A DNA stretch of 64,000 nt from a virus (lineage: Duplodnaviria; Caudoviricetes), in the IMG/VR virus record IMGVR_UViG_3300028833_000006, positions 32,001-96,000 of that record. One strand, 5' to 3'. This document shows positions 36,044 to 54,578 of the stretch, one piece after another. A program made the position numbers and the translations under genes. Each line of letters opens with the position of its first letter. The stretch's first letter is position 1. The notes below the pieces were generated by a model, which was not told the origin of the DNA, ran no database searches, and saw nothing but the letters and a program-made list of their open reading frames with translations.

Positions 36044-37168
36044 TTATATAAGACTCCCTTGGGATTTCCCAAATAACTGTTTCTGTACTCGTTGTCTGCT
36101 ACTGCCTAAATAATCTGGGTGTGCCCTAATATAATCATCCACATACTCCTTTGGGTCTATCTTTAGTCCATACTTTTGGTCATTTATATGCTTTCTCGGA
36201 TTACATTTCGGTATCCACTCGTCACCAAACTCACCAGTACACATATATGTGAGATTATACTTCATATAATTCTCAAATGCACCCCCTATCAAATCTGTAC
36301 CACAGCAACACCGTGAATCTGATAAATAATGTAAGTCATTATCTCCCACCCCTATAGGAATACCACTATCCTTTAACTTATCTTTTATTCTGCCGATATT
36401 CCGCAATTTCACATCTCGTTTTACTCTTATTCTGCCATCCGTTGCCTCATATTCTTGTTTATGTGCACTTGATACCTTATCTAAGAACGCTTGTGTACTA
36501 CCTAACACATCATAAGTAGATTTAAAATGCTCTACTGTTATATAGTTAGGCTTAATATCTTTAAGATACTCACATAATATCAATACTTCGTCTATGTCTA
36601 TGATAGGTTGTATTCTGACACTGCACCATATGCCAAAATCATTTTTTAGCATCTGCACAAACTCACATCTCTGTTGTGGACTTGGTGTGTTATATTCCCA
36701 CTGGTTTACATAACTATTTCGCCACCCCATTATTGACACTTGAAATGCATGTATCTTCGGATTCAATAACTCATAATAATTGTTATGTAAACTTGCTGTC
36801 TTAGTACTAAATAACACCGGGTAATCATATTTATTAGACATTTCTATAAATCGCTTTGTCTGCCCATATTCCCACTCTCTATGTTGGAAAGGGTCTGACA
36901 TACCACCACAATGTACAGGCACTCTATGCCTTATCATTTCAACTATAATAGACTTACTCGATTTATCAGTTTCTAATGCTTTATAGAAAAATCTTTCTAT
37001 TCTATCCATATCAGCTATATCAAAAGTACTACATTGCTTACCTTGCATCCAATCCATATTTGCCGAACAGTAGACACACCCGTATGAACACCCCTTATAT
37101 GTATCTATCCTAAATGCCATAGGACAGAATGCAAATTGTCTTGTTATTTGAATACACTCTGAATACAT
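36044..37168 (-). CDS. Radical SAM protein (SPL/DUF1848-like)
   Basis: DTYKGCSYGCVYC (CxxxCxxC), GGMSDPF, FSTK, RIQP and CCCG motifs. Confidence 0.8.
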   Translation of the reverse strand: MYSECIQITRQFAFCPMAFRIDTYKGCSYGCVYCSANMDWMQGKQCSTFDIADMDRIERFFYKALETDKSSKSIIVEMIRHRVPVHCGGMSDPFQHREWEYGQTKRFIEMSNKYDYPVLFSTKTASLHNNYYELLNPKIHAFQVSIMGWRNSYVNQWEYNTPSPQQRCEFVQMLKNDFGIWCSVRIQPIIDIDEVLILCEYLKDIKPNYITVEHFKSTYDVLGSTQAFLDKVSSAHKQEYEATDGRIRVKRDVKLRNIGRIKDKLKDSGIPIGVGDNDLHYLSDSRCCCGTDLIGGAFENYMKYNLTYMCTGEFGDEWIPKCNPRKHINDQKYGLKIDPKEYVDDYIRAHPDYLGSSRQRVQKQLFGKSQGSLI

Positions 37169-38614: not shown

Positions 38615-39661
38615 CTATTCCCAAATGAAAGTATACTTGAAAGGGTCTATATCACCCCTAAAAAATTTAGATTTTTTAATACTATAAGGGATATAGTGCT
38701 CCCACACCTCATTGATATAGTATTTTGTTTCATCCTCTCGCTCAAGATTTCGCTTTAGATTATTGAAACAATATATATAATAACTCTCATTATATTCTTG
38801 TAAATCATTATCTGCCATATAGATATACTCCACACAGCACTTATAACACCTACCGCATCTATGTTTAGGTAACATAATACCATACTTCTGTAATACCCAA
38901 TCATGCCAATACTGACGTAGATTAGCCCTACCCAAACAACTGACTGACAAATCTAATAAATCCTTATCATAGCATACGGACTTAAGACTGTCCTTAACAT
39001 CCTTTAGCACAACCCCCATCTTAAACTTTGGTATAAATGACCGCATAATCTCGTTATAGATATCCCACATCTCCATGTCATCCCCACCACAAAATTCGAA
39101 ATTGTCATAGTACCAAGTACTTGATTTATAATTACCGATTGCCAAGCGTGTACCTACACCCTCACGAATACCATACTCCAATGCCCCATTCGCTATCATA
39201 TAATTCTTCATGGGATGTTCAACATAATCATGATGACCAGATAATTTAATAGTATCTATGTACAACGGTATCTTTAGATAGTCTGCTATATCTTGAGCAA
39301 TTAAGTATTCATCTGACAATGCGGAATTAATGTGCCTCATATGATACAAATACACATTAAACCCCTTGGTCATATAATATTTAACTGTCGCTATACTATC
39401 TTTACCGCCACTAAATAGTACTATTATATTCTCTGCATTTCGCACAGTATTTAATTTAGGATACTCTCGGTCTTGATACGTCACATTTCCATGATGGTCT
39501 GCGTATAGTACAAAAGTATCATACAGTTCTTTAAACCTACTATCTAATACTGTCGGTACTAAAGACGGTTTCTCCTTACGCTCGGATAATAAAGAATACA
39601 CCCTATCAAACTCATCAAAGATAGGGTGTATATGTGGTTGGTCATATTTTATTGTTTGCAT
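38615..39661 (-). CDS. QueC-like PP-loop ATP pyrophosphatase (7-cyano-7-deazaguanine synthase family)
   Basis: VLFSGGKDS PP-loop and C-terminal SC...CGRCYKC zinc site. Confidence 0.7.
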   Translation of the reverse strand: MQTIKYDQPHIHPIFDEFDRVYSLLSERKEKPSLVPTVLDSRFKELYDTFVLYADHHGNVTYQDREYPKLNTVRNAENIIVLFSGGKDSIATVKYYMTKGFNVYLYHMRHINSALSDEYLIAQDIADYLKIPLYIDTIKLSGHHDYVEHPMKNYMIANGALEYGIREGVGTRLAIGNYKSSTWYYDNFEFCGGDDMEMWDIYNEIMRSFIPKFKMGVVLKDVKDSLKSVCYDKDLLDLSVSCLGRANLRQYWHDWVLQKYGIMLPKHRCGRCYKCCVEYIYMADNDLQEYNESYYIYCFNNLKRNLEREDETKYYINEVWEHYIPYSIKKSKFFRGDIDPFKYTFIWE

Positions 39662-39664
39662 ATT

Positions 39665-39784
39665 CTACTTCTTATTCTTCTTAGGCTTAATCACCATCTT
39701 ACCAAAATCATCTGCTACGAATCTTTTATCTGCTCTATCTTGCCCCTTTGTATTTGGTGCGTTTGCAGGTTTCTTCTTTGTCAT
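39665..39784 (-). CDS. Small basic protein (39 aa)
   Basis: Below ORF-track cutoff; GGAGG RBS; MTKKKPANAPNTKGQDRADKRF... Confidence 0.45.
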   Translation of the reverse strand: MTKKKPANAPNTKGQDRADKRFVADDFGKMVIKPKKNKK

Positions 39785-39835
39785 AATGTACCCTCCAAGT
39801 AATTACATTGTATACTATGTTTACTTAAATGTCAA

Positions 39836-40573
39836 TTATTTTTTAGTAGTCTTGGCACGAATAATTAACTCATTATGGTCATTATCCCATTCAAGTTTTT
39901 TAATGTTTAGCCCAGACTTCCTATCAAATACTACCTCAGACTCTTGTCCTGTCGGACTAAATAAAGCCTTTGTGCCTTTAGTACCAACATATTCTATCCT
40001 AACTGGATGATGCCAATCCTTAAATGCTGAATCGCTTAATGACAGATTGTATGTCGCTGATTGGAATGTCTTATCATAATAAATTGCGTCATTATTCTCT
40101 AAGAAATTATTAATTTTATCCATTCTCTTCTGCACAATATAGTGCAATACATCTGGGTCAACACTATTTAAATCTGGTGTTGCTAACCCAAATGACTTCA
40201 ACATAGACAGTAACCATTTACCAGTTGTTAACCGAACTACATTTATATCAGCATCAAGTGGCTTCATATTCTTATCCATAGTTGCCAAAGTCTTCTTCAC
40301 TCGATTAAGTCTACTCTCTTGGACTTCTGGACTTAATGCATTCCACTGTGGGTGTTGTGCCCTAATTGCATCATCCAATGGCACTCCGTTCACTTCATGC
40401 TCACGTATCGCCTTATTTAATCTCCAACTCTCTGATGTCTGAAAGTATCCGTACCAATTTGAATCACCGTCAAGAATTGCCTTATCCGCATCTGATATAT
40501 CTGTACTCTTTGTGGCTACGTCCGAATACCCACCGCTATACTGTCTTCTAGAACCATATCCATACGAACCCAT
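39836..40573 (-). CDS. ADP-ribosyltransferase (VIP2/C3-like) with MGSYG N-terminus
   Basis: Y...LNKAIR, VVR, FQSAT and ESEVV (R-S-ExE pattern); RBS before MGSYG. Confidence 0.7.
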   Translation of the reverse strand: MGSYGYGSRRQYSGGYSDVATKSTDISDADKAILDGDSNWYGYFQTSESWRLNKAIREHEVNGVPLDDAIRAQHPQWNALSPEVQESRLNRVKKTLATMDKNMKPLDADINVVRLTTGKWLLSMLKSFGLATPDLNSVDPDVLHYIVQKRMDKINNFLENNDAIYYDKTFQSATYNLSLSDSAFKDWHHPVRIEYVGTKGTKALFSPTGQESEVVFDRKSGLNIKKLEWDNDHNELIIRAKTTKK

Positions 40574-42590: not shown

Positions 42591-43877
42591 CTACTTCTTC
42601 TTGGGATGCTCTTTATCCCACTGTGCTTTTCGCTTCTCAGCATAAGCATTGTATTCAAATATCTTATCAGGTGTATAATTGAATGACTCATCGTGCTCTG
42701 CACTCTGAAAAGTATTCCATCTACCTTGGTCTATAATAGATAACTTCTTGCCACCAGTCTGACTTGCTACCTTAGTTAACTTCCTACCCGTATTATCCCA
42801 CAATGTAAAACTATCATAAAGACTTGCTATCTCTGGCACTGCCTTTTGTGCTTTCCTATGTGCACCCATCAATACTTCTACAGGGACTAAACGGTTCATA
42901 CCATAATCGTCACCCTTACAGTATCTGTATATGGAATTTTCCCTTACCGTAGGTTCGTCTGCAAAAATATAGTTTTGGTGACAAGTATAACCCTTATCAC
43001 GACACGACTTCAATCTTCTCTCGACACTCTTAGATTTTGTTGCTGTACCATCGTACATTACGGGATAGTTGTTATCTATAGCCATTGACCATACTTGGTC
43101 GGCTAATGCGGAACTTTCATTGTGGTAGTATCCTGCATTGAACAAATCTTCTATCTTGGCATCAGGATTAGCTGCCTTAAGCGACTTAAACTCATCGTCA
43201 TACATACCATTAGCCAAATCGTGTCTCCACAGCATGTACTTCAATCTGTCTGCGTCTATAACCAAATGTTGTTTATCACTGCCATAGAATTTACTAAACC
43301 CACTACCTTCAAGTGACATTGCGCTTAATTGCCCCTTACCAGCAGCACCACCGCCACCAGTAAACAACGCTTTCTTCTCCTCACCGGGCGCATAAGGCTT
43401 ATATGTAACTGGATGGTCTTCTCCATTTACGGGTATCTTATTAAAATAATCCTCAAGAACTTCTCTATGAATATCTGCTCTCTCTTGTGTGAGATTTCCA
43501 TTCTTATCAAGTGCTCTATACATAGAGTCGCCATTAGGGAACTTATCATTAGGTTGTGTAGTAGTAATCTCATCATACTCACCTAACTTATAATCTTTAC
43601 CCTTAAATGACATCACGCCATTCTTGTTAGTTACTTTAGTACCTTGTGTGAGATTATCACGATATTTCTGCTCATCTTGCAATCTCTTCGCCTCGGATTG
43701 GGCTTTGGCTATATCAGACTGTTGCTTATCAACTGCCTTTGCGCCACGCTTACTGGCCTTTGCTTGTGACTGTTCCTTAACCCAACGCTTTACAGCATCA
43801 TCTTTAGATTCACCGTCATATAAGGGTACATGATTACCATTTATGGTTATCCAATTTTTCGGTTCTTTATTCGCCAT
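42591..43877 (-). CDS. WITING-leader protein with zeta-toxin-like P-loop kinase
   Basis: Shared leader; TGGGGAAGKG Walker A, IDAD, YDGT, RLVP and WDNT motifs. Confidence 0.7.
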   Translation of the reverse strand: MANKEPKNWITINGNHVPLYDGESKDDAVKRWVKEQSQAKASKRGAKAVDKQQSDIAKAQSEAKRLQDEQKYRDNLTQGTKVTNKNGVMSFKGKDYKLGEYDEITTTQPNDKFPNGDSMYRALDKNGNLTQERADIHREVLEDYFNKIPVNGEDHPVTYKPYAPGEEKKALFTGGGGAAGKGQLSAMSLEGSGFSKFYGSDKQHLVIDADRLKYMLWRHDLANGMYDDEFKSLKAANPDAKIEDLFNAGYYHNESSALADQVWSMAIDNNYPVMYDGTATKSKSVERRLKSCRDKGYTCHQNYIFADEPTVRENSIYRYCKGDDYGMNRLVPVEVLMGAHRKAQKAVPEIASLYDSFTLWDNTGRKLTKVASQTGGKKLSIIDQGRWNTFQSAEHDESFNYTPDKIFEYNAYAEKRKAQWDKEHPKKK

Positions 43878-45237: not shown

Positions 45238-45894
45238 TCATATTAACTTAGTTTGGTGTGGTTTCTTTTTGTCTACAACCGTCATATGCCGTAATTTACC
45301 TGCACAACTCCTAGAACAAGTTTTAGTCGGCTCATACTTGTTTATACTAAACTCCTTACCGCAAATGACACATACCCTAGTAACATTATCCTTACCAACA
45401 TGTCTCCTATAATAAGATTTACAAGCATTGCTACAAAAAGTATTCTTCTTACCTGTATTGCACGCAATAAACTCTTTGCCACAATTAGTGCATGTACATG
45501 TTATGGGTGCATTTAAAATACCCCGCTCTATTAACCGCTTTGCGTTCTCTCTACTAACGGCTCTACCCTCTTCTGACCTATGCCACGCACTCGCTCTACT
45601 TCTATACCTGGCTAATGTTTCAATATCCTTTTGTAATCTTTCTTCGGACTTATGTGTTCCATGATATGTAGAATGCGTCTCATTTGATAAACATTCTAAA
45701 TTAGATATATCATTATTGCCACGGTTCTCATCCCTATGGTGTATTACACAACCTTTTGGAATCACACCCACTTCATGTTCCCACACATATCTATGCATCA
45801 AAACCGTATGACCATCAAGTTTTGTAATAAAATATCCATCAGACCGCCTAGTAAATTTAATACCATTGTAAAATTGTACCCTACTCTCTGCCAT
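45238..45894 (-). CDS. Free-standing HNH homing endonuclease with C-terminal zinc fingers
   Basis: MHRYVWE...IHHRDENRGNNDISNL; CxxC...FCSxxC repeats; AGGAGG RBS before MAESR. Confidence 0.85.
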   Translation of the reverse strand: MAESRVQFYNGIKFTRRSDGYFITKLDGHTVLMHRYVWEHEVGVIPKGCVIHHRDENRGNNDISNLECLSNETHSTYHGTHKSEERLQKDIETLARYRSRASAWHRSEEGRAVSRENAKRLIERGILNAPITCTCTNCGKEFIACNTGKKNTFCSNACKSYYRRHVGKDNVTRVCVICGKEFSINKYEPTKTCSRSCAGKLRHMTVVDKKKPHQTKLI

Positions 45895-45972
45895 ATCATA
45901 CCTCCTATATATAGGAATAGTATAACAAGAATAGGCAGAAAAGTAAATATCCGTATCGCACAATATCCGCAA

Positions 45973-46428
45973 TTAGTTACCTTTTCTACTTGCGTATTTG
46001 TCAATACCGTACCTTACCGCATCAATACTGTGGTCGTTCCCATCTGGATATGCACTAATGAAATTACCTTCCTTGTCTGTCTCATACTCATAGTTAGTAA
46101 ATTCTGCATAGGTGTAGGGGCACTTTCGTCTATCTATATAAATGTGATTAAGTCCCTGTAACCACTTCATAGAATAAGTACGACTCTCTGGCCCCTTTAC
46201 AGCACCACGGATAAATGCGCCATACGCCTTAAAGTCTGCTATTGACTTCGGCTCTGCGGAATCTGCGATAAGTTGCTCATCCTTCCTAATGAGTTTTTTC
46301 TCCTCATATAACTCATCAAAAATTTCCTTATTCCTCTTCATATAGGTGTTGTATTCTCTAAAGATGTACAAATCTAAATGCTTAGCATCAAAATGCATTT
46401 TAACAAATCTAGTAGGGTCTTTAGCGAA
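45973..46428 (-). CDS. terL: Terminase large subunit (PBSX family), exon 3
   Basis: FAKDP, ADSAEPKSI and DHSIDAVRY nuclease motifs; join(47968..47556,47122..46702,46428..45973) = 1290 nt, 429 aa in frame. Confidence 0.88.
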   Translation of the reverse strand, partial: FAKDPTRFVKMHFDAKHLDLYIFREYNTYMKRNKEIFDELYEEKKLIRKDEQLIADSAEPKSIADFKAYGAFIRGAVKGPESRTYSMKWLQGLNHIYIDRRKCPYTYAEFTNYEYETDKEGNFISAYPDGNDHSIDAVRYGIDKYASRKGN

Positions 46429-46701
46429 CATATTTAACCCTTATCTACCCTCGGTTTCCCGATATTTATTAGGGGATTAGACTATCTCTTAATATTATGG
46501 TTTACATAATATTCAGTGCACTTCGGACTGTGCTAATCTCAGCCCTACTTCCTTACGGAATAGTCGTTACACCTTTCCTTTCGGACTTGGCACGGTATTG
46601 TCATAGGCTGTTGCCCTTAGAGTTTCACCGTTAGCCGTATCTTCATATGACACCGCTTTTGCTTGCGTTCACACTGTTTTATACTGGAGCTACGCTACCC
46701 A
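46429..46701 (-). ncRNA. Group I intron 2 in terL (no ORF)
   Basis: Interrupts GLDWG|FAKDP after U and ends in G; P CTAACGGTGAAA, Q CAATACCGTG, R GTAACGACTA, S AAGAGATAGTCT. Confidence 0.85.
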
Positions 46702-47122
46702 ACCCCAGTCCAATCCATTATAAATCTTGTCAAATGTCTGCCACATAGGTACTTGTCTGTCACCCATCTCTACCAGTTGCTCCATGTCCAAGTCTTCTGC
46801 ATTAGGGAATACATCTCCACCTGTACCAATGGCTACACCCATGTATTCATGGATATAGGCTCTCTCATTCCTCTGCCTTAACTCCTCTGCCTCTTCCACA
46901 AACTGCATCCCTAGCCAGTCTATAGGGACATCAAAGTAAGTATTACTTGTTACTAATGTATTCTCTTGCAACTCTGCCTGCTCTGCATATTGATTAGCCC
47001 AATTAAGTTTACTGATAGGAGGGTTGAATGTTCTAAAATCCCAAAAGTTTTGACCACCACGCATTGTAGACTGTAATACCTTACGTATCTCTGCCTCGCC
47101 TGCGAACTGGTCAAGTTCCTCA
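46702..47122 (-). CDS. terL: Terminase large subunit, exon 2
   Basis: EELDQFAG Walker B, TFNPP, YIHEYMG and GLDWG. Confidence 0.85.
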
Positions 47123-47555
47123 CTTGGAGCATTGCGTATATAGCGTAAAGTTTTGTTATACGCTCCTATATTACTATAGGGTTCGGACTATATCATACTG
47201 TATATAACTGTTACCATTACATACAGCCCTTGCGCTTCGCTTTCGCTACTCTACTTACTTCTTCACATAAGGATTTCTCTTATGCTATGCTTTCGATAGT
47301 CTCTGAGCCTTCCTATCACATGGTTTGTGCATATTGCACAATGGATTTCTGAAATCGCAAAATCAGTTTGTATTTCCCTAGGGGAGATTTTTTATACCCC
47401 AAGGATACCCAATTCCGCAAACCCTTGATTTTACTGCATTTGTAGACTTATGTGCAAATTGCACAATAAAATGATAGGCTTGGTTGCTGATTGTCCTATA
47501 TGCGTATAGGATTTCCAGCAGTTCACAAGGTTTTACATGGTCTGAGGTCTAGTTA
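47123..47555 (-). ncRNA. Group I intron 1 in terL (no ORF)
   Basis: Interrupts ITWF|EELDQ; P AACTGCTGGAAA, Q AATCAGCAACCAAG, R TCAGAGACTA, S GATATAGTCCG; U before the 5' splice site and terminal G. Confidence 0.88.
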
Positions 47556-47968
47556 AACCATGTTATCCCGATGTAGCCAAATGACAGTTTGATTGACTTA
47601 ACCTTATTTGGGTCATCTAACCCCATAAAGATTATCTTCTGGCCAGTCGGAATATATGTTATAGGTGTTGAATAAGTTTTTGGAATCTTAAACAGACTGT
47701 CTACCCCTAACTGATATATCCCCCATACTACTTGGGCAAATATACTGTTCTGTATTGTATTTCCTACCTTGCGGAAACATACAGCGTGTACAGTGGGATT
47801 TGACATAATGAGTAGCGGAATACAAATACCACCGTAAAAAGAAGACTTTGTACTTCCTCTACCACCTTTACCAACATAATGTGTATGCTTATGTTGTAAT
47901 ATATCTTGTAGAATAGGTTTATACATAGGTATAATACATCTATCTAAAGATATACTCATATCACTCAT
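47556..47968 (-). CDS. terL: Terminase large subunit, exon 1
   Basis: KGGRGSTKSS Walker A, FRKVGNTI and GLDDPNKVKSI; GGAGG RBS. Confidence 0.88.
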
Positions 47969-48193
47969 TCTCTTACCTCCTTTTATTTTACTCTGTGTCA
48001 ATATTCAATTTTCAAGGTGCACATCATGGTGGTGTAGCCACTCGCTATTATCCACCCACCACTCAACTTATTGTTATTGTACTGTCCAATTTATCACTCT
48101 GTCAAATATTTGTACACAATGGGTACAAAAAAGGCTTGTTTTATACGCAAGCCTTATATTTTCCCTATAGGAACTTTTTATCTATGTATAGTC

Positions 48194-52569: not shown

Positions 52570-53265
52570 TTATTTTAAATTTTTACCTGCCTTGGTTGCA
52601 ACATACTTAAATCCAATTTTCTCAAGGTTTTTTGAATATGTTCTATCAAACATACCTACTGAATACTGTCTAGCATATGCATATGCTTGCTTGGGTGTCA
52701 TAGGCGGTCTATATGTAACCTTACCAGTTGAGCCATCCACCAACTTAACCATACCCTTATGTGGGCCAGACTTAAGTGGTGTTGTTGCCGCTTTAAGTGC
52801 TCTGTCATACGACTTATTAAAGTTTTTCTCAAGAATACTTTTCTTTGAATTTACCCACTTTGCTAATTTCTCTCTATCAGCATTCTCTGACGCAACTATA
52901 GAATACAACTGACCTTGTTTTGTAGTTGCTCTCAATTCTTTCCAATTTGACTGTGCAAATGTCTTTAAATCTGTAAGTGATAGTGTACCACCTAATGCAT
53001 TATTTGGATGTAAATGAGTAACACTTGCACCCTCGGTCTCTTTAGCATTTAAGATTTTAGGGTCAATGTTAACAGAATGCCTATCACCCTCATATGCTTG
53101 CATAAAATTACCGTCCTTATCAAATATAGCAAGTGTTTCTACACGACCTTGACCAAAGCCCTTTTCCTTGGTCTCATCTTTTGCTCTCAATTCCCACTCA
53201 TCTATCGTAGGTTTACCAGTCACAACCAAATGTTTAACATTTCCACCAACTACTATCCCACCCAT
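52570..53265 (-). CDS. JAB/MPN-like metallo-domain protein with MGG N-terminus
   Basis: VETLAIFD...THLHP...LSLTD (E...HxH...SxxD). Confidence 0.6.
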   Translation of the reverse strand: MGGIVVGGNVKHLVVTGKPTIDEWELRAKDETKEKGFGQGRVETLAIFDKDGNFMQAYEGDRHSVNIDPKILNAKETEGASVTHLHPNNALGGTLSLTDLKTFAQSNWKELRATTKQGQLYSIVASENADREKLAKWVNSKKSILEKNFNKSYDRALKAATTPLKSGPHKGMVKLVDGSTGKVTYRPPMTPKQAYAYARQYSVGMFDRTYSKNLEKIGFKYVATKAGKNLK

Positions 53266-53291: not shown

Positions 53292-54068
53292 TCACTTCTT
53301 TGCATTAACCTTTTTACTTATTTTTTCCTTAGATATTGTTGATTTATTATCCTTACTTATTGCTTGATTCTTTGCAACACCTAACATATAAGCATTTACA
53401 TGTATTCTTCCACCAGAATCTTGTCTGACAGAATTTGGGTCGTATCTGAATACTGAATTATTATTCACAAGTACTTCATTTTCGCCATTATTAGATGATA
53501 TGGGGTCAACGTATGCACAATATCCTTTACTCTTAGGAATTGCTAAATGTATAATGAGACCACTACTTGATACACCCATACCTCTATCACCTGCACAAAA
53601 AGATAAAGCACCATCATTTTGCAATACACCGCCACTAGCGTTTAAAAAATCCTTAACTTCATCAACTGTCATTTTTACACCCTTACGCTTACCAAACGGT
53701 CTAAAATCTGTCTCTCTTGTAACATTGATACCTTGCTTTAACTCAAACTTATTTATGGCATCATGCAAATTTTCAACTATTTGCCTATACTGATTAGACT
53801 CGGACAGATTTTCAAGTGGTGTGTTAAACATCATCTTATTTAACTCTCTATATAAACTGCCAGTATATCTCTCTACTGCATACAACTCATCGGAACTTAA
53901 TCCGCTATTATTCTCATCATTTATCCACACGTTCTGATTTGAGTTTCTTGAGTTAGAAAACCAATCCACTGCCTCATCATAACTCTCAAAATCCTTAAAA
54001 TCTCTAGATTGTGCCTTTAATTGTTGATAAGTTCCACCACTATTATTGGTTATACCATAACTACCCAT
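53292..54068 (-). CDS. ADP-ribosyltransferase (VIP2-like) with MGSYG N-terminus
   Basis: YTGSLYRELN, VTR, ALSF, AYVDPIS and ENEVLV. Confidence 0.75.
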   Translation of the reverse strand: MGSYGITNNSGGTYQQLKAQSRDFKDFESYDEAVDWFSNSRNSNQNVWINDENNSGLSSDELYAVERYTGSLYRELNKMMFNTPLENLSESNQYRQIVENLHDAINKFELKQGINVTRETDFRPFGKRKGVKMTVDEVKDFLNASGGVLQNDGALSFCAGDRGMGVSSSGLIIHLAIPKSKGYCAYVDPISSNNGENEVLVNNNSVFRYDPNSVRQDSGGRIHVNAYMLGVAKNQAISKDNKSTISKEKISKKVNAKK

Positions 54069-54239: not shown

Positions 54240-54578
54240 TTATGTTAAACGCATATTCTCAATGTCAACCTTTTGAGATTCTTTAATCTTATTCCAAGTA
54301 GGATTATCTTTTGGTATCTCTTGCCCATTTACACTATACCATAAATCTCTTAGATATAATAATATCTGTATCTGCGAAAAGGACTTGAATAATTCTGTAT
54401 TGACCATCTTGTCCTTTTCCGCATCATAGGTTGCTTGCTTTATGATATATTGCGTTATAGGTCTATTTTGGTCTTTGGAATAAAACTGAGATGTTGAGTA
54501 AAGGATATTATATCCCCTACTATTCAATGCTCTTTGTAATCTATGTATATTAACACTATTACTTGCCATATATAACAC
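54240..54578 (-). CDS. Hypothetical protein
   Basis: RLQRALN...QFYSKDQNRPIT...LRDLWY. Confidence 0.6.
   Translation of the reverse strand: MLYMASNSVNIHRLQRALNSRGYNILYSTSQFYSKDQNRPITQYIIKQATYDAEKDKMVNTELFKSFSQIQILLYLRDLWYSVNGQEIPKDNPTWNKIKESQKVDIENMRLT

Follow-up and report, generated by a model that had tools for sequence, protein, structure and literature searches.

The stretch of DNA analyzed here (64,000 nucleotides, called the window throughout) comprises bases 32001–96000 of a virus record that is a complete genome, 111,212 bp long and ending in direct terminal repeats; the window has a G+C content of about 36%, and its minus strand carries nearly all genes. Our subject is a minus-strand gene at 38615–39661 whose 348-residue product, denoted Q, is assigned below to the QueC superfamily, together with two kinds of genes that accompany it: genes for toxin-like proteins that share the N-terminal peptide MG[STA]xG (hereafter, the tag), and a gene for an enzyme dependent on S-adenosylmethionine (SAM). 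Two genes upstream of Q, as described in an initial annotation made from the nucleotide sequence, lies the first of the tagged genes, encoding the ADP-ribosyltransferase ART1; a 39-residue open reading frame (ORF) is located between them.

Q is predicted to consist of an N-terminal alpha/beta domain (residues 1–75), a PP-loop core, a four-cysteine zinc ribbon, and C-terminal helices. Its motifs are SGGKDS (84–89), D117-E118, E148-H-P-M-K-N153, N177, D194, W199, S241-C242, and C269-G-x-C272-x-K-C275; the motif residues are invariant in 53 homologs, save S84, G85, and M151, each of which is at least 90% conserved. The Pfam QueC profile matches residues 79–138 of Q only, at 16.6 bits and thus below its cut-off of 22 bits; 49 of the 53 family members match it weakly (best E-value 7e-5). 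Searches with NCBIfam gave generic PP-loop matches only, and a profile search of PDB sequences retrieved TtuA, MJ0690, QueC, and MnmA together, with Cap9 at an E-value of 0.13. The PADLOC QueC model PDLC00911 recognizes Q at 44 bits (E-value 6e-12); since it also matches in 14 of 14 control genomes, it is unable to separate Cap9 from QueC.

The fold of Q is more informative than these scores. Two of the structures that it resembles belong to bacterial defense systems: (i) Cap9 of the type IV cyclic oligonucleotide-based antiphage signaling system (CBASS), which conjugates 7-carboxy-7-deazaguanine to the Gly2 amine of CD-NTase (PDB 9NTO; Wassarman et al., bioRxiv 10.1101/2025.04.06.647259), and (ii) QatC of the qatABCD system, known with its partner QatB (PDB 9Y01/9Y02), whose MGTS start is essential and which has a long disordered tail (PMC13279940, PMC13639016, PMC13376578). 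An AlphaFold2 model of Q, built from the 53 homologs with a mean predicted local distance difference test score (pLDDT) of 92, was compared with known structures by VIA-align. The five best entries were Cap9 (9NTO_B; Z 14.8, 173 of 181 residues aligned, root-mean-square deviation (rmsd) 2.8), two chains of QatC (9Y02_B and 9Y01_B; Z 14.2 over 267–278 residues, spanning model residues 3–348), and two entries of QueC (3BL5, Z 13.6; 2PG3, Z 12.9), and the next tier, with YcfA, TtuA, and LarE, began from Z 10.6. The whole-model alignment joins Q residues 3–348 to residues 40–457 of the QatC chain (278 residues, rmsd 4.7, Z 14.2). The description of Q as a QueC-like PP-loop/Zn protein in the initial annotation is thus upheld by the fold (Z 13–15 for Cap9, QatC, and QueC) and not by the Pfam threshold. 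The ESM Atlas's own model of Q resembles the MurL epimerase family (template modeling (TM) score 0.73 over 316 residues), which we treat as a lead only; the domains MurL_N and MurL_epimerase_C (PF26299 and PF26298) were absent from Q and, among the matches listed (25/30 families, E-value up to 1), from the 53 members. All matches to Q in BFVD are annotated as 7-cyano-7-deazaguanine synthase, with TM scores of about 0.45, and that search returned no close viral relative of Q.

Canonical QueC's catalytic signature, YxQxHxxE, VPxRN, and YPDC (PMC13082051), is altered in Q, where it reads Y106-H-M-R...E118, H149-P-M-K-N153, and G192-G-D194-(D/C). The Tyr and Glu of the first motif, the Pro, the Asn, and the Asp are kept, unlike the Gln, the His, the Arg, and the YPDC tyrosine; past residue 138 this correspondence is by motif only. 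A profile comparison with one canonical QueC aligned the PP-loop half alone, and a class-wide search for further QueC sequences returned one. The zinc cysteines of Q follow the pattern C242-(x26)-C269-x2-C272-x2-C275, and the spacing after the first cysteine differs from the C(x)8CxxCxxC form of QueC.

The Q family, which is large and carries neither a name nor an annotation, comprises 141 clusters at 90% identity (within the range of the word search) and 518 clusters at 50% identity with E-values up to 1e-3. Nearly all of its members come from contigs of viral or metagenomic origin; in a scan of 185,579 species genomes, it was found in only three contigs, all from metagenome bins. A search of 50,697 phage records with the Q locus gave no match by megablast and a sole match by tblastn, Staphylococcus phage Alsa_1 at 21% identity; single-protein searches for related loci with P0203 and P0183 gave no match. 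Fusions of Q occur with a methylase-like domain (P0210) and with a pyridoxal-phosphate enzyme or GNAT. Judged by fold scores and motifs, Q represents a branch of its own within the QueC superfamily, carried by phages and apparently with an extended architecture like that of QatC and MurL.

The initial annotation described Met-Gly leaders on three proteins encoded in the window, and for all three the start was borne out. ART1 (39836–40573, minus strand, 245 residues) starts with MGSYGYGS from an ATG behind the ribosome-binding site GGGAG; it matches Pfam ADPrib_exo_Tox at 21.5 bits and carries the R, S-x-T, and E-x-E motifs. Its homologs in four genomes all start with MGS-x-G, and the following approximately 25 residues are unalignable. 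An upstream TTG was ruled out as the start of ART1 by the ribosome-binding site and the starts of the homologs. The second ADP-ribosyltransferase, ART2 (53292–54068, minus strand, 258 residues), starts with MGSYGITNNSGG from an ATG behind AGGTGA and matches ADPrib_exo_Tox at 58 bits and ART at 26 bits; its codons for Ser3 and Gly5 differ from those of ART1. The adjacent JAB/JAMM peptidase-like protein (52570–53265, minus strand, 231 residues) starts with MGGIVVGG behind GAGAGG and has the full JAMM signature (invariant E43, H84-x-H86, S96, and D99), and its homologs in four other phages start with MGSSG or MGSRG.

To compare gene neighborhoods, we retrieved 23 viral loci with Q relatives. At these loci, neighboring and mutually unrelated genes start with MGSVGSN, MGSVGAN, MGSIGAK, MGSTGSN, MGSRGGG, and the like, each behind a ribosome-binding site. 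Phages with Q encode 50 distinct MG[STA]xG proteins, with Ser at position 3 in 82% of them; the expected frequency of such a start by chance is about 6e-4 per ORF, and the observed one is far above that. Position 4 is occupied by V, T, S, R, I, or Y, and the tag is followed by a low-complexity tail, residues 6–14 being mostly S, T, G, N, and K. The tagged proteins include ADP-ribosyltransferases, a papain-fold glutamine deamidase, JAB peptidases, a 149-residue family, and many proteins without an assigned function. In the ADP-ribosyltransferase and JAB families, M1, G2, and G5 are invariant and S3 is present in 5 of 6 and 3 of 5 aligned sequences, respectively, and the next 20–40 residues are unalignable. 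Since the tag is encoded by differing synonymous codons behind differing ribosome-binding sites, it is kept at the peptide level and not copied as a DNA cassette; the same differences rule out a recombination cassette acting at the DNA level.

The residue at position 4 tends to be uniform within a genome. MGSRG occurs five times in G001 and MGSYG twice in the window; in L007 (five times MGSVG) and L012 position 4 is mostly V, with one T and one I, and G022 varies position 3 instead, having Ala in MGA(V/T)G. Uniformity within genomes and difference between them hint at co-adaptation of the tag with something that reads it.

The distribution of the tag was assessed in 22 complete or near-complete related genomes with large terminase (TerL) proteins 55–100% identical, of which 12 encode Q (Q+, 897 kb searched) and 10 do not (Q-, 657 kb; each at least 91% complete, with TerL at least 68% identical). 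MG[STA]xG starts with a ribosome-binding site were found in 30 genes of the Q+ genomes versus none in the Q- genomes, and other Met-Gly starts have equal density in both sets. At the genome level, the tag co-occurs with Q in 12 of 12 Q+ genomes versus 0 of 10 Q- genomes (Fisher p 1e-4 to 2e-6, before correction for relatedness). Two Q+ genomes, G016 and G017, fail the strict pattern but encode a homolog of the 149-residue family, which starts with MGSTGHG lacking a ribosome-site motif in G016 and with MGATYMG in G017. The Q- genomes contain no homologs of the tagged proteins, that is, Q- phages are without these effector families. Tagged genes flank Q in L005, L007, L012, L013, L014, and the window, and they are found 8–57 kb from Q in G002, G015, and G019; because of the latter, linkage alone fails to explain the pairing of the tag with Q. 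The co-occurrence of Q with Met-Gly-leader genes across phages, which the initial annotation had named as a check, is observed.

In the clade formed by G015, G016, G017, and G019, the sole tagged protein is a conserved 149-residue protein of unassigned fold, which gave no match in an ESM Atlas search. Its gene is always located between a conserved gene of approximately 105 residues and the small terminase gene (L063:9106–9555, L053:18988–19437, and L059:17039–17485). In the window, a conserved gene of approximately 105 residues, c13 (54240–54578; its product contains SRGYNILYSTSQFYS), forms the upstream edge of a cargo-gene slot that is present in both Q+ and Q- phages.

The third component is a SAM enzyme. 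Every Q+ genome (12/12) has exactly one of two such enzymes, denoted c16 and c1, and never both, and the ten Q- genomes have neither. Of the 12 Q+ genomes, 11 have the partner gene next to Q. In G001, G002, and G004, as well as in metagenome loci, c16 directly adjoins Q on its downstream side, and in the genome of the window it is located about 1.4 kb, or six genes, downstream of Q. Of 17 additional metagenome loci no shorter than 7 kb, 16 have the partner directly after Q, often with overlapping start and stop codons, and at least 26 contigs, matched by size, appear among both the homologs of Q and those of c16. Q relatives at least 45% identical to the Q of the window pair with c16, and those 35–42% identical pair with c1. 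Phages with c16 and phages with c1 are interleaved on the TerL tree; thus, Q travels jointly with its partner. In many phages of this near clade, Q lies between clamp-loader genes.

The window encodes c16 (36044–37168, minus strand), a radical SAM protein of 374 residues resembling spore photoproduct lyase (SPL). It belongs with the NCBIfam families PA0069/Rv2578c, and, since its PA0069 score of 40 bits lies far below the equivalog cut-off of 360 bits, it is a relative and not an ortholog of PA0069. The best PDB match of its AlphaFold2 model (pLDDT 90.5) is SPL, with Z 17.4–17.8 over 248 residues, followed by SuiB at 15.7. The CxxxCxxC cluster (C27-x3-C31-x2-C34, all three cysteines invariant) and the SPL-type partial TIM barrel of the model agree with this assignment. 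The alternative partner c1 is a methyltransferase-like protein of approximately 310 residues that matches PF01555 (N6_N4_Mtase). In the near clade, c1 has the motif I DPFAGG, lacks a ParB domain, and invariably carries CPPY in place of the S/D/N-PPY of DNA amino-methylases; its best NCBIfam match, a weak one, is the ribosomal protein L3 glutamine methyltransferase.

The absence of folE, queD, queE, and dpdA from the window, reported in the initial annotation, extends to the complete genome: no tRNA-guanine transglycosylase (TGT) or DpdA, no FolE, and no QueE were found in its 111,212 bp, and the only match to QueD is a chance-level one of 12.7 bits in a structural gene. Both radical SAM genes of the genome are PA0069/SPL-like and not QueE; the second, a paralog of c16 (G000:C1:100219–101151, 80 bits), is located about 4.2 kb past the right end of the window. 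TGT and PTPS (QueD) are likewise absent from all 12 Q+ genomes (0/12).

Taken together, Q, one SAM enzyme, and the MGSxG-tagged toxin-like proteins constitute a three-part phage module that is real whichever substrate Q acts on, and it is previously unreported: our literature search found no description of the Q family or of a phage-encoded protein-tagging relative of QueC. The tagged toxin-like proteins are probably delivered into the host cell. As the function of Q we tentatively favor, with slightly less than even confidence, N-terminal acylation of the Gly2 residue of the tagged proteins. The pathway would include the following steps: (i) the host methionine aminopeptidase removes Met1, exposing Gly2; (ii) Q, acting as an ATP-dependent carboxylate-activating ligase, adenylates a carboxylic acid; and (iii) the alpha-amine of Gly2 attacks the adenylate, yielding an N-terminally acylated protein. 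This scheme follows the analogy with Cap9, which places 7-carboxy-7-deazaguanine on CD-NTase, and, as is thought, with QatC acting on QatB. The acid, if it is a deazaguanine, would be taken from the host, and the SAM partner would either finish the attached group or recognize it. The modification might serve for capsid loading, for protection of the N-terminus, or for control of toxin activity.

The predicted fold of Q argues for acylation, as its three best-matching families all belong to the QueC family and two of them modify N-terminal glycines of proteins (for QatC, this is thought to be so). The near-clade c1, with its CPPY motif, no ParB domain, and a weak match to a protein glutamine methyltransferase, can be counted on the same side. 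Acylation is further supported by the restriction of tagged genes to Q+ genomes even where they are not linked to Q, by the conservation of the tag as a peptide, by its likeness to the MGGS and MGTS starts of the known substrates, and by the resemblance of Q to MurL, a proposed carboxylate-adenylating enzyme. In type IV CBASS, nucleic-acid enzymes, the TGT-like Cap10 and the OGG-like Cap11, have been recruited to handle a protein-attached nucleobase; thus, a methylase-like or SPL-like partner is compatible with protein tagging.

A number of observations weigh against acylation of the tagged proteins by Q. First, G017 carries only a degenerate form of the tag, MGATYMG, and a looser pattern finds four small basic proteins in Q- phages, two starting with MGNGG, one with MGGGG, and one with MGGSS. 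Second, the TerL tree needs three changes of the Q trait, and its strongly supported branches force only one; since the tree needs so few, the perfect co-occurrence of the tag with Q rests on few independent events, about three. Third, as read by motif, of the base-holding residues of Cap9 (D117, Y115, and R86), Q keeps the Asp (D194, invariant) and has Lys for Arg (K152) and Gly for Tyr, so that the base-stacking Tyr of Cap9 is apparently not kept; past residue 187 the correspondence between Q and Cap9 is a motif reading and not a residue-level structural alignment. Fourth, the gene found most constantly beside Q encodes not a tagged protein but a SAM enzyme of DNA-acting families (N6_N4_Mtase or SPL). 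The best-known activity of both families is on DNA bases that are flipped out, and P0210 is a fusion of a methyltransferase with Q. Finally, in small phages, relatives 24–27% identical to Q are encoded in a tight operon of a ParB_N and SPPY DNA methylase, Q, and a small PALP-like protein, in this order, and no MGSxG proteins were found in the records with these distant relatives. Thus, the pair of Q and a methylase is older and wider than the tag.

Located next to terminase or replication genes, the distant operon has the look of a DNA-modification cassette not described so far. It is exemplified by overlapping genes in a 31-kb phage (L212:8176–10967) and in Staphylococcus phage Alsa_1 (L196:6663–9423; OR354820.1). 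In Alsa_1 the three genes are located in the replication region and the Q-like gene is split into three ORFs. One phage with a distant Q relative, G043, has a 31-kb genome that is 90% complete.

The linkage between Gly2 leaders and Q proposed in the initial annotation, with the leaders marking a second class of tagged effectors, gains strong comparative support from the genome-level co-occurrence, the tagged genes flanking Q, and the likeness of the tag to the substrate starts of Cap9 and QatC. The more specific proposal of deazaguanylation is weakened by the changed base-holding residues, the obligatory SAM neighbor, and the distant ParB-methylase clade that has no tags.

The same partner and distant-clade evidence favors a different function, which we consider possible but rather unlikely: Q and its SAM partner could form a two-enzyme pathway for hypermodification of nucleic acid, most likely DNA, to which the tag would be linked only indirectly. 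The partner would flip out a base and install or expose a group, and Q would adenylate its carboxylate and amidate it, as QueC converts an acid to an amide. The tag would then have a role of its own, for instance as a signal for capsid loading or for processing, and would either travel with Q through a common accessory gene pool or belong to toxins from which the modification shields the phage's own DNA. The near-obligatory adjacency of Q and its partner, the membership of the partners in the PF01555 DNA methylases and the SPL fold (Z up to 17.8), the P0210 fusion, the location of Q between clamp-loader genes in many phages, and the distant ParB_N-methylase operons beside terminase or replication genes are all as expected from such a pathway. 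It leaves unexplained, however, why 30 tagged genes are found only where Q occurs and why the tag resembles the substrates of two known protein-modifying relatives of Q. Moreover, in the near-clade c1 the S/D/N typical of motif IV is lost and a ParB domain is lacking, the genomes contain no base-exchange enzyme, and the two partners would have to attack different bases by different chemistry and yet serve one Q family. The evidence of DNA type relates to the partner and to the distant clade, and that of protein type, namely, the fold, the unlinked tagged genes, and the likeness of the tag, relates to the own clade of Q.

Protein-type evidence (the tags and the Cap9/QatC-like fold) and DNA-type evidence (the partners and the distant ParB-methylase clade) would be reconciled if the tag were a handle that couples a protein to nucleic acid, a variant that we hold to be improbable. 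In this case, Q would join Gly2 to a carboxyl-bearing nucleobase that is either free or made on phage DNA by the partner. The set of effectors would be tethered to the genome and packaged and injected with it, which would represent a new route for loading cargo into a virus particle.

A role of Q in counter-defense is very doubtful. Q would block or mis-modify the glycine of host CD-NTase or QatB, or drain 7-carboxy-7-deazaguanine, thereby disabling type IV CBASS or Qat, and the phage's own tags would be incidental or decoys. This would suit the fold that Q has in common with Cap9 and QatC, its position among anti-host toxin-like genes, and the lack of a deazaguanine precursor pathway in the phage; it explains neither the obligatory SAM partner nor why the phage has several tags of its own that are conserved as peptides, and the scan of species genomes, with the three metagenome-bin contigs mentioned above, revealed no host. 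Finally, ordinary DNA modification with 7-deazaguanine (preQ0 or a related base), its remaining genes lying elsewhere in the genome, was the alternative named in the initial annotation; in spite of the QueC-superfamily membership of Q, the frequency of QueC genes in phages, and the BFVD annotations (though with TM scores of only about 0.45), we reject it as extremely unlikely, because TGT/DpdA and a real QueD are missing from the 12 Q+ genomes and FolE and QueE from the complete genome of the window, so that no dpdA/folE/queD/queE set exists elsewhere in it, and because Q itself falls below the Pfam QueC threshold and has altered canonical motifs.

To our knowledge, the tagging of a first glycine with a nucleobase by QueC relatives, found in 2025–2026, is known only in two bacterial anti-phage systems with a single substrate each, and the reaction of QatC is unsolved. 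If Q does acylate the tagged proteins, the same chemistry would be used on the viral side of the conflict, the tag would be a general address label and not a one-protein switch, and a second enzymatic step would be involved. If the pathway modifies DNA instead, Q and its partner would represent an undescribed route of phage DNA hypermodification; either outcome would be new. With one enzyme, one partner, and a short peptide, the module is also a compact system for learning what these enzymes attach.

Several further features of the window and of the compared genomes were observed. The 39-residue basic ORF directly upstream of Q (39665–39784, minus strand) has the ribosome-binding site GGAGGG, an ATG at 39784, and a TAG at 39667–39665, and it is probably co-transcribed with Q; in L014, a comparable basic ORF of 46 residues precedes Q. 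The promoter-like site TTGACA-17-TACAAT (39807–39835, minus strand) ahead of the 39-residue ORF and Q agrees with the consensus in 11 of 12 positions, which is a consensus match only. It is one of four near-perfect TTGACA-17-TAnAnT sites on the minus strand between 35827 and 39835 (39835–39807, 38585–38557, 36039–36011, and 35855–35827), and a terminator-like hairpin (37231–37207) lies directly ahead of c16; from these signals, the small genes of this region look transcribed one by one. A WITxNG-type leader and a Zeta_toxin kinase domain (53.5 bits) are combined in a 428-residue protein (42591–43877); taken with the tagged ADP-ribosyltransferases, this indicates that both tag classes decorate toxin-like enzymes. 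The large terminase gene is divided into three ORFs (47549–48001, 46690–47064, and 45973–46431), directly downstream of the last of which a 244-residue HNH/zinc-ribbon-like ORF is found (45238–45972, the whole region covering 45238–48001); this arrangement suggests an intron or a homing-endonuclease insertion. The small basic Met-Gly proteins of the Q- phages are encoded in the gap between the terminase and portal genes (G028:60038–60295, G029:63381–63626, G030:39541–40056, and G036:20557–20877), and their homologs in other genomes begin with MA or MP.

Comparison of the module with known systems revealed partial likeness to each of them. Cap9 is the best structural match to Q; both have a PP-loop and a zinc ribbon, and the Cap9 substrate has a Met-Gly-small-small start with a flexible tail. 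In contrast to Q, which is phage-encoded, has 348 residues with N- and C-terminal domains, and is accompanied by a SAM enzyme as its partner and by numerous candidate substrates, Cap9 comprises only a minimal core of approximately 185 residues; it is encoded beside CD-NTase, its single substrate, the TGT-like Cap10, with which it works, and Cap11. A search of the genome for SMODS/CD-NTase found none. Because of its size and the absence of CD-NTase and TGT, Q is not Cap9.

QatC has an extended architecture apparently similar to that of Q, with a QueC core and N- and C-terminal extensions, and a partner with an MGTS start and a disordered tail. It differs from Q in sequence (10% identity), in the zinc motif (CGxCxxRR versus CGxCxKCC in Q), and in setting, being a bacterial defense protein that works one-to-one with QatB, whereas Q is phage-borne. 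For qatA (KAP_NTPase), only a 15.8-bit P-loop match inside a clamp-loader gene was found, no search having been aimed at TatD (qatD), and the neighbors of Q are phage genes rather than a qatABCD operon. Given the low identity, the different zinc motif, and the lack of a qatA/qatD context, Q is not QatC. The known protein substrates of QueC relatives, CD-NTase with MGGS and QatB with MGTS, have flexible tails and need removal of Met1 (PMC13279940; 10.1101/2025.04.06.647259). The 50 tagged phage proteins share with QatB the Met-Gly-small-small start and a tail rich in S, T, G, N, and K, which is a resemblance and not homology to QatB.

Canonical QueC (PF06508 cluster 1; 3BL5 and 2PG3) has in common with Q the PP-loop, the four-cysteine zinc site Cys...CxxCxxC, and the core fold (Z 12.9–13.6). 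Q differs by its score below the Pfam threshold, its altered signature, the lack of a queD/queE/folE/tgt context, and its extra domains; as score, signature, and context all fail to agree, Q is not a canonical QueC. MurL provides the best full-length match of Q among predicted structures (TM score 0.73), and it has been proposed to adenylate the terminal carboxylate of a muropeptide, that is, to act on the carboxylate of a peptide end (PMC8788868). It differs in being a bacterial cell-wall enzyme without a tag system, and it shows no sequence-level Pfam match to the Q family.

Finally, the tagged proteins resemble phage proteins that travel with the virus particle. Alt and the internal proteins of phage T4 are carried in the capsid, injected, and provided with N-terminal capsid-targeting sequences, and MuF polymorphic toxins were reportedly described by Jamet et al. 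in 2017. In common with these are toxin-like enzymes, notably ADP-ribosyltransferases, a short shared N-terminal element, and gene positions near the terminase and portal genes. The differences are that the T4 signal is cut by the prohead protease and that MuF toxins are fusions, and neither system needs a free Gly2 or a ligase-like enzyme such as Q.

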